From Candidatus Riflebacteria bacterium HGW-Riflebacteria-1 (GTDB lineage Bacteria > Muiribacteriota > Ozemobacteria > Ozemobacterales > Ozemobacteraceae), in the NCBI GenBank assembly GCA_002839445.1, contig PGYB01000006.1:64001-128000 (forward strand): a stretch of 64,000 nt of DNA, written 5' to 3'. Shown here one piece after another: positions 4,366-9,433 of the stretch. Numbering within the stretch: position 1 is the first letter of the stretch; the number at the start of each line of letters is the position of its first letter. The position numbers and the translations under genes are program-made. The notes under the pieces were generated by a model, which was given only the letters and a program-made list of their open reading frames with translations, was not told the DNA's origin and searched no databases.

Positions 4366-4641
4366 TTTCAGACCATATTAATCTGAGAAAAAGTGTTTGA
4401 AGGAATCATGTCGGCAAGTCTATCACGATAAGCTGGAACCTTACTATCTGATTTATCAGATATATTTGAGATCGACCAGGTCCCCATAAATGCCAGCTCA
4501 GAATTGACAGAGAATAACTTGTAATTGCTCTCGAATCATTTGCTGTCCTGAAATTGACATTAACCATCCTTGATGATAGTCTCCCGGTTATGTCTGGGGA
4601 TTTATGGTGATCCGGGTCATCAAAATCAAAAAGGATAAAAT

Positions 4642-5199
4642 ATGAAAAATTTCTCGACCCTGTTTCTACTTGTTTGTCTGGTTTTCTGCTCATTTGTACC
4701 AGCTTTTTCGGCTGACGAATTCACCTACGAAGATGGCAAAGTTGATCTGGTATGTCCGGACGGCTGGAAACACACCATAACTGAAGAATCTCTCACCATG
4801 AGCTCTCCAGACGGTGCTGTTCAGTTCGTTTTTGAACTGCTCGAAGCAGACGATCTTGTGGCTGGCATTGAGCAGGCTCACAAAGAGATTAACGCTGCTG
4901 TTGGCGAAACCACTTTCGGCGAACCAGTTGAAGAAAAAATCAACGGTATGGATGCTTTGACGTTCACCGGCACCTGCCCCGCCAAAGGCCTCGAAATAAT
5001 ACTCTCAATCATAGACACTCCAGCCGACAACGCGCTCTGTGTTTATTACTTCGCCGCCAAAGCTGCAGAAGAAACTCACGCAGCCGGAATTGCCGAAGTC
5101 ATTAATGGCATTCGCCCGGCTGTCGTAGAAGCCGCCGGTGACGAAGAAACCGACGCCGACGCTGACGCTGGCGATGAAGAAGAAGGCGACGTAGAATAA
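4642..5199 (+). CDS. Secreted hypothetical protein with an acidic D/E-rich C-terminal tail
   Basis: Signal peptide MKNFSTLFLLVCLVFCSFVPAFSA. The C-terminus is rich in Asp and Glu. Confidence 0.55.
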   Translation: MKNFSTLFLLVCLVFCSFVPAFSADEFTYEDGKVDLVCPDGWKHTITEESLTMSSPDGAVQFVFELLEADDLVAGIEQAHKEINAAVGETTFGEPVEEKINGMDALTFTGTCPAKGLEIILSIIDTPADNALCVYYFAAKAAEETHAAGIAEVINGIRPAVVEAAGDEETDADADAGDEEEGDVE

Positions 5200-5236
5200 T
5201 TTCTGCTTTTCTTTTACGCTGCCCGGCAGGATTTTC

Positions 5237-5281
5237 AAAACAGGTGCTTGCTAAGATTCTTGGCAGGCGCCTGTTTTCATG
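5237..5281. terminator. Rho-independent terminator (bidirectional) between convergent genes
   Basis: 15-bp stem aaaacaggtgcttgc/gcaggcgcctgtttt with two G-U pairs and an 11-nt loop, flanked by an A-run and a T-run. Confidence 0.6.
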
Positions 5282-5343
5282 CTGGCAACTCTATTGTCTC
5301 AGCGAATCTGATTACTCAAAATTAGAGTATCGTACCTCTGCTG

Positions 5344-5745
5344 CTATATTTTTTGCAGGGATTCGAGCTTAAGTTCATCAATTCTGCTGAAGTGGTCTTT
5401 ATTGTTGGTTAATACTGATAAATTCATATACATGGCAGTTGCCGCAATCAGCAGATCCATGTCGTCCATTCTTTTGCCCGATGATTCAAGGCGGGCTTTG
5501 AGCTCGCCGAATACTTCCATTATGCCTTTGTTTATATCTATGACCGGAAACAGTTCGGCAACCCGATTGGCAGTTGCCATGTTTTTTTCGGGGTAACGCG
5601 ACTTTCGGGCTCCATAAACAAGCTCACCATAAGTGACAACAGAAATAAATTTTGGCAGATTCTTGTTTTCTAGCATCCACCGGTGTACCGTTTCATTCCC
5701 TTTAAGGCTGTAGATGATGATGTCGGTATCAATCAAAAATGCCAT
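5344..5745 (-). CDS. vapC: PIN-domain toxin (VapC family)
   Basis: MAFLIDTDIIIY... PIN signature with conserved acidic residues. It overlaps the upstream antitoxin gene. Confidence 0.8.
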   Translation of the reverse strand: MAFLIDTDIIIYSLKGNETVHRWMLENKNLPKFISVVTYGELVYGARKSRYPEKNMATANRVAELFPVIDINKGIMEVFGELKARLESSGKRMDDMDLLIAATAMYMNLSVLTNNKDHFSRIDELKLESLQKI

Positions 5746-6007
5746 TCTTCCCTCCAAAACGGGTTGAGCCGGTGCGGGCGCTTCTTATATCTGCAACAAT
5801 TTCTTCAGCGCTCTTCTCATCTTTCCAGCCGCCGGTGAGGGCAATAAACTCCTGGGTCGCGTTCGCCGAACCTGACTGCATCGAACTCAGGTAATCCTGA
5901 ATTATCGTTATGACTTCCTGACTGATAGAACGATTGTGCAGTTTGGCCGACCTCTTCAGAAAGTCGTATAACCGGTCATCTATATCTCTGACCTGCAATA
6001 TTGCCAT
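5729..6007 (-). CDS. vapB: Ribbon-helix-helix (Arc/MetJ-type) antitoxin partner of VapC
   Basis: MAILQVRDIDDRLYDFLKRSA... N-terminal RHH pattern. AGGAGG lies 7 nt upstream of ATG 6007. The gene overlaps the vapC start. Confidence 0.7.
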   Translation of the reverse strand: MAILQVRDIDDRLYDFLKRSAKLHNRSISQEVITIIQDYLSSMQSGSANATQEFIALTGGWKDEKSAEEIVADIRSARTGSTRFGGKNGIFD

Positions 6008-6043
6008 CTTCAACACCTCCTGCTCACTATAAGTATATTTATT

Positions 6044-6076
6044 TGCGCATGAATTTGCAAGCAAATTGCATGAAAC
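6044..6076. promoter_or_regulatory. Candidate operator for vapBC autoregulation, a semi-palindromic sequence
   Basis: tgcgcatgaatttgcaagcaaattgcatgaaac. It has a perfect inverted repeat atttgc-aa-gcaaat flanked by direct gcatgaa repeats, about 40-70 nt upstream of the vapB start. Confidence 0.3.
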
Positions 6077-6138
6077 TAGGGGTTTAGCCTTGCAAAAGCG
6101 TTCAAGCAGGCAAGTTCCTCTGATTATTTATTAAGGAA

Positions 6139-6570
6139 TCAGGCTCGAGTGAACAGTTCGGCTGGCAGCGAGAATCGTTTGGCCAGCAGGCCGGCGTGGC
6201 GCTTGTTGATGCGGCGTTTTCCTGACAGTATTTCGGAAACCACGCCCTGGCTGCCGATGTCTGCAAGGTCAACCTGCTTGAGACCCTGTTCGATCATCAG
6301 ATTGCGCAACAGTTCAGCTCCTGAGACCATCGGAATCTGATGATGTTCACGATCATAGTCTTCGACCAGCACTTCGAGGGTTTCCAGCAGACCAACCAAT
6401 GGATGCCGTGGGTCATCGTTCACCAGATCGGAAATATACTCCAGCGCATGCACTACCAGGTCATACTGCTTGCGCGAGCGAATCCGCGACAATGGAATAT
6501 CTCTGGTAAGCCTTGACCATGCCGAAACAAAATCATTGCCGAACAAAACCGGACTTGCGATACTACGCAT
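6139..6570 (-). CDS. higA: HigA-family antitoxin (C-terminal XRE helix-turn-helix)
   Basis: C-terminal ELLRNLMIEQGLKQVDLADIGSQGVVSEILSGKRRIN is a typical HTH. Its size and domain order match HigA. Confidence 0.75.
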   Translation of the reverse strand: MRSIASPVLFGNDFVSAWSRLTRDIPLSRIRSRKQYDLVVHALEYISDLVNDDPRHPLVGLLETLEVLVEDYDREHHQIPMVSGAELLRNLMIEQGLKQVDLADIGSQGVVSEILSGKRRINKRHAGLLAKRFSLPAELFTRA

Positions 6571-6706
6571 TTTTCCAGCTCCCTCTGTCGTATTCCGCGT
6601 GGGTCATTACATGACGCACATAAACCCGGCCGCGATTGAAATGGATCCCGCAGACGATCCGGGAGTTGTTGCCACCGACGTTAAAGACATATTGCCTGCT
6701 GAGCGG
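6563..6706 (-). pseudogene. higB: Remnant of a HigB/RelE-family toxin gene: only the C-terminal half remains, with no start codon and in-frame stops upstream
   Basis: Minus frame reads ...PLSRQYVFNVGGNNSRIVCGIHFNRGRVYVRHVMTHAEYDRGSWKNA*, matching the HigB C-terminal consensus (YVFNVGGNE...YIREVMTHKEYD). TAA and TGA stops lie just upstream in this frame. The neighbouring gene ends 27 nt away. Confidence 0.55.
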
Positions 6707-6732
6707 TTAAACTCAGGTTTGCAAAGGATTAG

Positions 6733-7323
6733 TCAGCCGGTGATTGCCCTGAGAATCTGGTTGCGGAGCTTGCCGATGTTGGCTTTTACGGCTGGTGGAA
6801 AGGGCAAAACGAACGCCTGCTCGGCCGTATCGCTGACAAAGCGGATGACAGCGCCGGAAAGCCCCCTGCCCTGCAGTGCTTCAGCGAAAAAGAAGCTTTC
6901 CATATCGACCAGGCTGGCATTGTGTTTTGTTGCCAGCTGTTCGCGGCTTTCTTTTGTTGTTGCCGGCTGATCAACCGTTACTATTGCTGCTGTCGGCAGA
7001 TCTGTGGTGTTCGGTAAATCGAGCTTGCGGTCGCCATAAATAAGCGTGTTGCAGCAGAACAGCTGGCCGATTTGCAGATCAGGCGTGAGCGCGCCGGCGG
7101 CGCCAAAAAGAATGACACGCAGATAGCCGGCGCGAGCAAGCTCGCGCTCCAGCAGCGCGATCAGCGGGGCACAGCCCGCCGCGTTGGCAGTGGCCAGCCG
7201 CCCGCCTGCGAAAGTCCAGGATGTTGCGTCGGTTTGCCGGCAATCGGGCAGAATGCCGGCCAGCAGTCGGGCTTCAGCCTTGAACGGCGAAAGAATAAGC
7301 GTTTTTCGTTCTGACGGGTTCAC
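6733..7323 (-). CDS. MTA/SAH-nucleosidase or PNP-family hydrolase (futalosine-hydrolase-like size)
   Basis: VDMESFFFAEAL and IRFVSD match the MTAN motifs VEMEATAIA and RAISD. It is about 196 aa. Confidence 0.7.
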   Translation of the reverse strand: MNPSERKTLILSPFKAEARLLAGILPDCRQTDATSWTFAGGRLATANAAGCAPLIALLERELARAGYLRVILFGAAGALTPDLQIGQLFCCNTLIYGDRKLDLPNTTDLPTAAIVTVDQPATTKESREQLATKHNASLVDMESFFFAEALQGRGLSGAVIRFVSDTAEQAFVLPFPPAVKANIGKLRNQILRAITG

Positions 7324-8369
7324 TTCTGCAAGCTCCGGTCGAGCATTTTTTTGAGGTCGGCGTTGGTGAAATTACACTGTTTAAGGCGTTCCCAGACTTC
7401 TGGAGTTTCCATGCACATGTAGACTGGCACGTCGGCAAAGTATTTCTGCAGGCCGGCGCGCGCGAAATTGTAGATCTGCTCGCGGAAAGGCCTGAAATAC
7501 CTGATTTTACCATCTGTTGACGGATAAAATTCTTCTGCAAAAATGCCGGTGTCGGGGTGATACTTTTCGACGTATTCCTGAAAGCCTTTTGGAAAGCGGA
7601 ACGTACCCAGCGAAATCCAGTTGATTTTAAGACCGTGCAGATATTCGTGCATAAGCGCGAAAACCTCAGAATACTTTTGTTGCCAATCTTGCAGTGGCAG
7701 CAGCGGGTCAAAATGAAACGCCAGGGCACAGCCTTTCTCGCGCGCGGCCGTGGCCGCAGCAGCAAGACGGTCGCGCAGTGACGCGGCGCCGTGTTCGAGG
7801 CGGTCGATGTATTCCTGCGGGTTGAGCGAAAAAGCGAGAGTGACATGACGGGCATCTTTTGCCTGAATGATTGGGGCAATATCTGCGCTTTTGCTTTTTA
7901 CTTCGAGCGTGAAATCGTGCATTCCGACGGTCCAGTCGATAATCGCAGCGTTGAGTGGGAATATCCCTTCAAGCGCGAGCGGGTCGCCGAACTGACCGGT
8001 GCCCAGACGGATTGGCCCGCTGATTCGCTTTCTGAGCTCGACAATCTCGCGCTGGCAGTCTTCCCAGTTCAAAAAGAGCGTCACATCGCCGGCGCCAGTA
8101 TAATTCTGAATTATGCAGTATTCGCACTCGAACGGGCAGCCCATACCCCACTCTACGACCCAGTAACCGCAGCAGACGCTGCCTTTCTGGCCAGGACAGG
8201 GTTTTATAAACGCGCCGCGGTTAAGCGTCAGCAGCAGGCCATTGCCAGGATGCTGCTCGCCGCTGACCTCGTGTTTATGCTCAAACTTGATCGCACTCTC
8301 GATCTGTTTTGCCAGCGGCAGGTCTTTGACCTCAGAGTCGATGTAAAGGTTTCTGAAGCTTAAAGTCAT
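7320..8369 (-). CDS. SPL-family radical SAM protein (spore photoproduct lyase-like)
   Basis: GCPFECEYC is a CxxxCxxC radical SAM cluster motif. Length is about 350 aa. It overlaps the downstream nucleosidase gene by 4 nt. Confidence 0.7.
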   Translation of the reverse strand: MTLSFRNLYIDSEVKDLPLAKQIESAIKFEHKHEVSGEQHPGNGLLLTLNRGAFIKPCPGQKGSVCCGYWVVEWGMGCPFECEYCIIQNYTGAGDVTLFLNWEDCQREIVELRKRISGPIRLGTGQFGDPLALEGIFPLNAAIIDWTVGMHDFTLEVKSKSADIAPIIQAKDARHVTLAFSLNPQEYIDRLEHGAASLRDRLAAAATAAREKGCALAFHFDPLLPLQDWQQKYSEVFALMHEYLHGLKINWISLGTFRFPKGFQEYVEKYHPDTGIFAEEFYPSTDGKIRYFRPFREQIYNFARAGLQKYFADVPVYMCMETPEVWERLKQCNFTNADLKKMLDRSLQK

Positions 8370-8572
8370 TGAATATCCTCAGGGGTTCTGGCCGGGCAAC
8401 TGTGAACCGGCTGCAGAATCTCACAGTTACCAAATCTTTCGTTGTCTTTGTCCGCAATACGAGGCGTTGTAGTTATCGGCATCCATTGAAAATGATAACG
8501 AGCAGAGGGTGATGCTGCTGTAATAATCGTATATTTTGCGTCCGGATTTGTTTTTTGAATTAGTGCAAGCAT
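8366..8572 (-). CDS. Small hypothetical ORF; may instead be an AT-rich promoter spacer
   Basis: 68-codon ORF whose stop overlaps the radical SAM gene start. GC is lower than in the flanking genes and it has no recognisable motif. Confidence 0.2.
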   Translation of the reverse strand: MLALIQKTNPDAKYTIITAASPSARYHFQWMPITTTPRIADKDNERFGNCEILQPVHSCPARTPEDIQ

Positions 8573-8575
8573 GCG

Positions 8576-9433
8576 TCACAGCTCTTCGACGGCGGCAAAA
8601 ATCGCGTCGACCGCGGCCTGCGCTTCGGTCAAACGACCGCTGTGCCGGCGTGTCAGATTGCAGGTCAGCTGAATACCGGGCTTTGAAAAAGTCTGGTCAA
8701 TTTTTAAGCTGATGCCGGGTGGCAGAGGGTTCTGCTCAAGCGCCCGCGCGAATTTGTCGAGCACATCGGTTCGCCGTGGTTGCGCCAGGCGCTGCAGGTT
8801 TTCGAGCACCTCGGCAGCGTCGTTACCAGGAAGATTCCCGGCAGCATCTTTGCCATGCAGATTTTCTGGCAAGACGCCTTTTCTCTGGGCCTGCCGCAAA
8901 AACATGGCGATATTGCGTTTTTCTGAAACTGTGCCGGGCATCTGCAGAAGCGGCAGAGCAAAACGAGCAATGTCCTCACCAAGATGGCCAAGCTCGCGCC
9001 AGATGTTAAGTGGCAGTTGCTGCGCAGGCTGTTTGCTACTGGCCAGAATATTGTCGGCAATATATCTGAGGGCCAGCTGCAGCTGCGGCGAATCAGCTGT
9101 GCCGGCACTGCTGAAAAAAGACGCTTCAGCACCAGCTTCTACCCCGGCAAAAGCTGCCGCCAGCTCAAAAGCGCTCAATTCTCGATGACTGTTCAGCTGC
9201 GTAAAAAGCAGCGCTGGCGACCCAGCTGCTTCAATGCATGGCGCGCTGGCAAAGCCAAGCTGTTTGAGCGCAGTCAATCGCCGGTGCCCGTCACAGAGCA
9301 TGTTCTGGCTGATAACCAGCGGCTGCAGAACACCGTATTCTTTGATACTGCGCACGAGATTATCGTCTGGTGCTGGAGTGGCAGAGCCGAGCAGCGGCTT
9401 AAGATCTTTTACGGGAACTTCAAATATTTTCAT
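8576..9433 (-). CDS. ParB/Srx N-terminal domain protein (ParB-like nuclease/CTPase fold) with an uncharacterised C-terminal region
   Basis: N-terminus GVLQPLVISQN...DGHRRLTALKQLG is a ParB box II-like GxRR motif. Confidence 0.7.
   Translation of the reverse strand: MKIFEVPVKDLKPLLGSATPAPDDNLVRSIKEYGVLQPLVISQNMLCDGHRRLTALKQLGFASAPCIEAAGSPALLFTQLNSHRELSAFELAAAFAGVEAGAEASFFSSAGTADSPQLQLALRYIADNILASSKQPAQQLPLNIWRELGHLGEDIARFALPLLQMPGTVSEKRNIAMFLRQAQRKGVLPENLHGKDAAGNLPGNDAAEVLENLQRLAQPRRTDVLDKFARALEQNPLPPGISLKIDQTFSKPGIQLTCNLTRRHSGRLTEAQAAVDAIFAAVEEL

Follow-up and report, generated by a model that had tools for sequence, protein, structure and literature searches.

In a 64,000-nt stretch of DNA from Candidatus Riflebacteria bacterium HGW-Riflebacteria-1 (contig PGYB01000006.1, positions 64,001 to 128,000; hereafter the window), a short minus-strand sequence directly before an intact higA antitoxin gene was analyzed, and with a probability of about 0.9 we consider it to be a non-functional remnant (pseudogene) of the toxin gene higB, of the E. 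coli YgjN (PF09907) type. Its host is an uncultured Candidatus Riflebacteria genome, and the module very probably belongs to the mobile higBA type. The frame at 6706..6563 is open for 47 codons (PLSRQYVFNVGGNNSRIVCGIHFNRGRVYVRHVMTHAEYDRGSWKNA*), with TGA-GTT-TAA standing in frame directly upstream. It matched the Pfam HigB_toxin profile PF09907 with 58.1 bits (E=1.1e-15, cut-off 27 bits) over profile positions 37-73 of 74, and the E. coli HigB chains 5ycl_B, 5ifg_A and 6kml_A with E ~4e-9, the matched segment being residues 54-92 of the 104-residue chain 5ifg_A. Aligned by tblastn with the intact 101-aa HigB of locus L007 (homologous loci are given here by L numbers), the fragment covered residues 59-100 with 74% identity (E=8e-20). 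Positions 6563 to ~6694 were 71-74% identical in nucleotide sequence to intact higB, with 92-96 of 129 nt identical to each of the five intact genes tested, and correspond to HigB residues 59/60-101; the first five codons of the frame, PLSRQ, showed no clear homology (4-6 of 15 nt matching in-frame). As judged by these alignments, the similarity to HigB is far above chance. This agrees with the initial annotation, which had recognized the C-terminal half of a HigB/RelE-family toxin and had named a lack of significant similarity as the result that would overturn that assignment. No other HigB-like sequence was found in the window.

The window does not hold a complete HigB_toxin domain in an open reading frame (ORF) of ~100 aa with a start codon and a ribosome-binding site, as is expected of a member of this family. 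Only ~43-47 codons of higB are readable, compared to 101 in the relatives. No ORF of at least 30 aa lies over the fragment, and its frame has no ATG, GTG or TTG ahead of codon 31 and no Shine-Dalgarno sequence. The initial annotation was right that the fragment has no usable start codon, as in-frame GTG or ATG starts would yield 17 aa at most. Gene callers applied to six assemblies containing this locus called no gene at the remnant. Thus, no toxin can be produced here, neither by transcription from its own promoter nor by translation, and toxin activity of the remnant is not to be expected from a sequence missing the N-terminal half. A toxin remnant outside any ORF, an intact antitoxin ORF and intact pairs elsewhere are what characterizes an eroded toxin-antitoxin (TA) module with an orphan antitoxin, and all of them were found. 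The view that the toxin has been lost and the antitoxin retained is therefore upheld by the HigB family match, the lack of expression signals and the full-length HigA.

The remnant is more fragmented than it first appeared. Between the stop codon of the upstream nucleosidase gene and the codon for Tyr60 of HigB there are 41 nt, whose in-frame alignment with higB was unconvincing (14-16 of 39 nt identical, against a null of 9.7 +/- 2.8). The reading of TGA and TAA as nonsense-mutated codons of an in-frame R-V-R extension was accordingly rejected and replaced by a frameshifted alignment to codons 22-29. In this local alignment, 6703-6727 pairs with higB codons 22-29 (window TGCAAACCTGAGTTTAACCGC, L012 TGCAAACCTG-GTTTACCTGC), with 19 of 21 positions identical and one gap, a score attained in 0 of 500 shuffles, and the best match of this second scrap fell at the same position of the gene in 7 of the 11 relatives having the region. 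Within the scrap ATG has changed to TTG, and an additional A at 6713, a 1-nt insertion inside ACC-TGG-TTT (T-W-F), has turned codons 23-27 from ATGCAAACCTGGTTT into TTGCAAACCTGAGTTT, thereby creating both stops, TGA at 6715-6713 and TAA at 6709-6707. The two stops are thus present in frame upstream of the fragment, as noted initially, but they are the product of an insertion in a surviving piece of higB. The intervening junction nucleotides have GGCAA in common with L012 and CAA with L007. A native post-nucleosidase origin of the 41-nt junction, which has AACCTGA in common with L015, was also tried and rejected; 16% of shuffles attained its local score, and no consistent match was seen in L016-L019.

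Missing on the 5′ side are codons 1-21 with the start codon as well as the promoter and its operator, and ~78 nt of internal sequence (codons ~30-58) have been lost in addition. About 165 of 306 nt of higB are retained, namely the frameshifted codons 22-29 and codons ~59-101. The description as a C-terminal half only therefore fits the main piece and omits the scrap, and the N-terminal loss, although real, had been underestimated, since ~58 of 101 codons are missing or scrambled rather than ~45. Read from these alignments, the erosion took three or more lesions, with sequence lost both from the 5′ end and from the interior and with an indel, and is not one clean deletion. Non-synonymous divergence (pN) over the 42 C-terminal codons of higB was 0.140 between the window and intact genes and 0.049 among intact genes, a 2.9-fold excess, while for the 143 codons of higA the corresponding values were 0.197 and 0.156 (1.3-fold). 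Such values indicate that constraint is relaxed on the higB remnant and not on higA.

HigA of the window scored 25.1 bits against HTH_3 (cut-off 23), a helix-turn-helix (HTH) domain placed C-terminally, and matched E. coli HigA (chain 5ifg_B) with E=1.3e-13, query residues 13-140 aligning with chain residues 6-136. On these matches it is a complete HigA belonging to the YgjM type of E. coli. Its length is that of the closest relatives compared, and the conserved positions are kept: at positions conserved in at least 90% of the family it shows three conservative departures (M to L, L to I, E to A), all common to its closest relative, where the relatives range from 0 to 7. Pairwise ratios of non-synonymous to synonymous substitution (dN/dS) in the HigA family are 0.03-0.19. 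What this HigA lacks is an adjacent functional cognate toxin, because the neighboring higB is a remnant, as examined throughout the window. The toxin-first order with an overlapping HTH antitoxin gene is still visible; the higB stop TAG (6565-6563) overlaps the higA start ATG (6570-6568) by 8 nt in the motif ATGCGTAG, as it does in intact relatives (ATGAGTAG), and this bears out the earlier statement that the two lie within a few nucleotides of each other. The Shine-Dalgarno-like site of higA and its start codon are both located inside the kept part of higB, and intact relatives have the equivalent AAAGGAG at the Shine-Dalgarno position. The 3′ end of higB may thus persist because it carries the translation signals of higA. 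As gene callers miss the remnant, this HigA would be labelled merely as a transcriptional regulator, and recognition of the remnant is of use for annotation.

Homologs of this HigA with 63-79% identity, almost all of 143 aa, were found in Candidatus Riflebacteria and Rifleibacterium and on metagenome contigs, the metagenome scan giving 11 loci and exact-protein look-ups completing the survey. Nine lineages (L007-9/L038-43, L013/14, L044, L045, L046, L051/52, L053/54, L055 and L056/57) have a 101-aa HigB directly upstream of HigA, with the 8-nt overlap. Common to all nine is a sigma-70-like promoter, TTGAYA-17-TATTAT, whose spacer is the palindrome ATATCTCA-N4-TGAGATAT, predicted to be a typical antitoxin operator; promoter and palindrome together are present in 11 relatives. 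L007-L009 (1-4432) are plasmid-like contigs carrying a Rep3_N/RPA replication protein, a resolvase and two tandem HigB_toxin + HTH modules. Their HigA (P0005), 76% identical to that of the window and accompanied by an intact HigB, occurred in 118 blocks of the collection, and the element bearing it is therefore widespread.

None of these upstream signals was recovered in the window. A consensus scan for sigma-70 promoters, which would miss Riflebacteria promoters deviating from that consensus, found no minus-strand promoter-like site, and no terminator-like site was found, between the nucleosidase gene and higA; as a positive control, the same scan recovered the higBA promoters of L007 and L050, which match 10 and 11 of 12 consensus positions, respectively. 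The operator core TCTCA-N3-7-TGAGA was absent from the whole window, so that the autoregulated promoter with palindromic operator expected upstream of a higB gene is missing. A higA promoter inside the remnant, as in Pseudomonas, was considered and rejected, since the scan found none that fits the consensus, neither in the window nor in the 3′ half of higB of intact relatives. No Rfam RNA family matched positions 5000-7500 at E<=1. When up to 3 mismatches were allowed, the operator search gave two weak matches in the window (0.13 expected). One of them, at 4444-4463 on the plus strand, is a near-perfect palindrome (CTATCTGATTTATCAGATAT) with the 8+4+8 geometry of the HigA operator and a symmetric C-to-G change in both half-sites, situated in the divergent intergenic region between the gene for a 758-aa membrane protein and p185, ~1.7 kb from higA.

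With its own autoregulated promoter deleted, higA would depend on read-through transcription that begins ahead of the ParB-like, SPL and nucleosidase genes on its strand, as suggested by the gene order, by the lack of a promoter- or terminator-like site and by analogy with locus L047 described below. The gene would then no longer be autoregulated. HigA itself could be debris that is not yet eroded, could be kept against an incoming plasmid HigB, with neutralization of related plasmid toxins as one option, or could serve as a free transcription factor.

Loss of HigB was not confined to the window. Four other lineages have lost it independently, so that, with the window, 5 of the 14 sampled lineages are eroded, and in all five HigA is intact with 143 aa. 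For example, L047 (2953-2969) and L046 (2601-2969) represent the same genomic site with identical higA DNA, and L047 is without 352 nt. This deletion removed the higBA promoter, the operator and 88 of 101 higB codons, and the remaining 13-codon remnant adjoins the stop of an upstream same-strand gene encoding an S9-peptidase-like protein. By comparison of the two sequences, the deletion is very recent, occurred in place and is of the same style as that in the window. The 13 codons might mark the minimum needed for the translation signals of higA. In L049, the first ~40 higB codons are replaced, and L010-L012 (3704-4008) carry a single 1-nt deletion at ~codon 77 of higB, the same in each of three independent assemblies. 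In the output of one gene caller, the L010-L012 higB appears as two ORFs, of 65 aa and 18 aa; these loci have an intact HigA (P0015, NCBI name Candidatus Rifleibacterium sp.), and a pair of ParE and ribbon-helix-helix (RHH) genes lies just upstream. L050 has kept the promoter, the operator and codons 1-27, followed by an internal deletion with a stop. In L050 (148-341), as in the window, the internal higB deletion sets in directly behind codons W26-F27, and the two remnants have C-terminal substitutions in common (NSRI and RHVM; S, H and M). This likeness reflects either an inherited, shared first lesion or coincidence. Together with the intact loci, the series of a 1-nt frameshift and of internal, 5′ and near-total deletions forms a natural set for testing anti-addiction by orphan antitoxins.

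The eroded pair is located in an islet that follows a conserved gene block (Table 1). In L017 both flanks align with the window (nucleosidase up to 6745, and the p185 side from 5277), and blastn showed 30 nt in place of window 5278-6744; the nucleosidase gene of L017 is followed, after ~90 nt, by a convergent p185 gene, which is likewise present in the window. The higB remnant, higA and vapBC thus constitute, by this alignment, a lineage-specific islet. It had been suggested that orthologous regions would reveal the intact higB; this did not turn out so, as none of higA, higB or vapBC follows the nucleosidase in L015-L032, among them the 16 Riflebacteria/Ozemobacter loci fetched with the ParB-like/SPL/nucleosidase block. 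The nucleosidase (196 aa) has the same length and the same TGA stop as its L015 ortholog; its C-terminus and stop are native, and the left junction is therefore placed within 0-5 nt of that stop. The stop (6735-6733) does adjoin the fragment, as reported, with a measured distance of 26 nt from 6706 in place of 27 nt. The block itself, a ParB-like gene, a 68-aa ORF, an SPL-like radical SAM gene and the nucleosidase gene (7320-9433, minus, and L015-L030), is conserved in Riflebacteria/Ozemobacter, with a 4-nt overlap between its SPL and nucleosidase genes. L031 and L032 are labelled as an Erysipelotrichia metagenome-assembled genome, yet their SPL and nucleosidase proteins share 78-82% identity with the Riflebacteria ones; these contigs are probably mis-binned.

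On the other side of higA, the vapBC pair is intact, as had been stated, with matches to PF22513 and PF01850 and with the RHH antitoxin gene preceding the PIN toxin gene with a 17-nt overlap. The NCBIfam VapC score was 104, under the curated equivalog cut-off of 140. A vapBC promoter-like site, the sole minus-strand one found between 5300 and 8700, is embedded in GCAAAT/ATTTGC repeats (tgcaatttgcttgcaaattcatgcgcaaat, 6032-6075, minus), which are probably the VapB operator.

Table 1. Coordinates of the eroded higBA module and neighboring features in the window.
Feature	Position	Strand	Evidence
TA islet, ~1.45 kb (higB remnant, higA, vapB, vapC)	5278..6732	-	blastn vs L017
vapC, PIN-domain toxin, 133 aa	5344..5745	-	PF01850 E=2.4e-16; NCBIfam VapC NF047863 E=6e-30
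vapB-like antitoxin, FitA-like RHH, 92 aa	5729..6007	-	PF22513, E=1e-7
vapBC promoter-like site TTGCAA-17-TATACT	6032..6060	-	consensus scan
higA, 143-aa antitoxin / Xre-type HTH regulator, without partner toxin	6139..6570	-	ORF, HTH_3, 5ifg_B
higB pseudogene, main remnant, codons ~59-101 + TAG stop	6563..6694	-	PF09907, E. coli HigB, tblastn L007
Shine-Dalgarno-like GAGGGAG for higA	6579..6585	-	read from sequence; 8 nt ahead of ATG
Junction nucleotides, origin uncertain, possibly higB codons 55-57 (S-G-Q)	6695..6702	-	4-6/15 nt in-frame
Second higB scrap, codons ~22-29 (P-M-Q-T-W-F..)	6703..6727	-	local alignment to L012
PNP_UDP_1 (HpnG-like) nucleosidase, native upstream gene	6733..7323	-	Pfam + NCBIfam matches

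Two alternatives would deny that higB is a pseudogene. An assembly or sequencing artefact, with an intact higB hidden by a frameshift or a collapse, is so improbable that we can practically dismiss it, nothing having been found in its favor. The exact HigA protein was found on 13 contigs, and the 701 bp between the 3′ end of the nucleosidase gene and the end of higA showed 100% identity with the window at six loci, which were assembled from separate samples and by separate pipelines (Logan, JGI, ENA). Among them is the L005 strain, which has 29 differences from the window in 4.9 kb, with none inside 6078-6873 (796 nt). Identity of the region in all six assemblies, one of them from a strain with differences elsewhere, excludes a sequencing error. 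For the L005 strain, ~4.7 differences would be expected within 6078-6873 if they were evenly spread; they are clustered, and the significance is uncertain. Moreover, the room from the nucleosidase stop to the start of higA is just 162 nt, whereas an intact higB would need ~298 nt and a promoter, so the sequencing frameshift that the initial annotation had named as a possible cover for a functional start fails as an explanation. Hardly less improbable is a shortened active toxin or a regulatory peptide made from a non-canonical start. The frame stays open over 47 codons and has kept a protein-like character, with pN well below the synonymous value (pS), but it has the two stops directly upstream and the deficits in start codons, ribosome-binding site, profile coverage and gene calls already given, and its non-synonymous change is raised relative to intact higB genes.

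Other alternatives accept the remnant and concern its history or the state of higA. The module may have arrived already broken, by illegitimate recombination with one end inside an eroded higB and without a deletion at this site, which we hold to be possible, at well under even odds. No relative has an intact higB beside this nucleosidase, the closest HigA relatives, L050 and L049 (79% identity), stand in other contexts and are themselves eroded, and the near-identical start of the L050 deletion with its shared substitutions hints that the lesion predates the split. Against this, L047 compared with L046 demonstrates that deletions in place, which take away the promoter together with 5′ higB sequence and end right after the upstream stop, occur in the family, and a left junction 0-5 nt from the nucleosidase stop is what selection against deletions entering that gene would leave. 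Such an arrival alters only the history, and the nature of the feature is the same. We are similarly doubtful, though not dismissive, of the whole higBA being dead, with higA an unexpressed or functionless frame that has had no lesions so far. That its promoter and operator are deleted with no promoter-like replacement, that the cognate operator was not found in the window, that both genes are pseudogenised (N=186) about as often as the toxin alone (N=185) in Photorhabdus (PMC13617665), and that such deletions can be very recent (L046/L047) would all fit. However, the remnant shows a ~3-fold excess of non-synonymous change, indels and two deletions, whereas higA is lesion-free with three conservative changes, has kept its Shine-Dalgarno sequence and start codon, and follows closely on a same-strand gene, from which no terminator-like site separates it; furthermore, five independently eroded lineages all keep the 143-aa HigA. 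The opposite case, in which the orphan HigA is retained and rewired to the host operon for anti-addiction against plasmid higBA or as a free Xre-type regulator (e.g. at 4444-4463), we regard as unlikely. If this were true, the five toxin losses in 14 lineages would mean that selection has repeatedly favored antitoxin-only alleles in Riflebacteria.

Several points tell against our preferred reading of a higB pseudogene before an intact and translatable higA served by upstream transcription. Read-through into higA is argued from gene order, the promoter scan and the L047 analogy, and an unrecognised internal higA promoter may exist in the remnant, as Pseudomonas higBA has one (PMC9966142). Purifying selection on higA after it was orphaned is inseparable from selection before the loss because synonymous sites are near saturation. 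No relative with an intact higB here was found, and the erosion may have taken place in situ or may have preceded the arrival of the islet. An intact HigB may also be present elsewhere in the genome, the search for HigB having covered the 64-kb window.

Toxin-first erosion is already well documented, and this ordinary case of TA decay leaves current understanding unchanged. What it offers is a case, clearly resolved in its parts, from an uncultured phylum about which little is known; the toxin went first, through several small lesions, and the surviving piece of higB is the one carrying the translation signals of the antitoxin.

The closest known counterpart is E. coli K-12 higBA (ygjN-ygjM; 5IFG, 5YCL, 6KML), with the same toxin family, antitoxin family and toxin-first order. 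Experiments have established that one autoregulated promoter, placed ahead of higB, serves the E. coli pair (PMC2814082), and the intact Riflebacteria relatives likewise have a single upstream promoter with a palindromic operator. In the window, by contrast, the toxin is a ~165-nt remnant without start codon, promoter or operator, and HigA stands behind a housekeeping-type operon. The pattern resembles the TA survey of Photorhabdus, where toxin-only pseudogenes (N=185) far outnumbered antitoxin-only ones (N=8) (PMC13617665), and the orphan antitoxins reviewed together with the anti-addiction idea (PMC7354431), in that the toxin is lost first, the antitoxin ORF is kept and the loss recurs independently; the small islet of clustered TA systems at a variable intergenic spot is also shared with the eroded systems of Photorhabdus. 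The window differs from them in its uncultured Riflebacteria host and in the loss of the promoter and operator along with the 5′ end of the toxin gene, which would make the antitoxin dependent on upstream transcription. Chromosomal ccd of Erwinia chrysanthemi acts as an anti-addiction module against F-plasmid CcdB (summarised in PMC7354431). As there, a chromosomal antitoxin has a related plasmid-like copy, here the 76% identical HigA of L007-L009, whereas co-occurrence of that plasmid-like element in the same host and cross-neutralization are both putative. Finally, HigA of Pseudomonas aeruginosa regulates other genes, mvfR, exsA and amrZ, and a second promoter inside the Pseudomonas toxin gene controls expression of the antitoxin (PMC9966142). 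Like that protein, the HigA described here is an Xre-type HTH regulator that may act in trans without its toxin; unlike it, it has no cognate operator in the 64-kb window, where the variant palindrome at 4444-4463 is the single candidate site.

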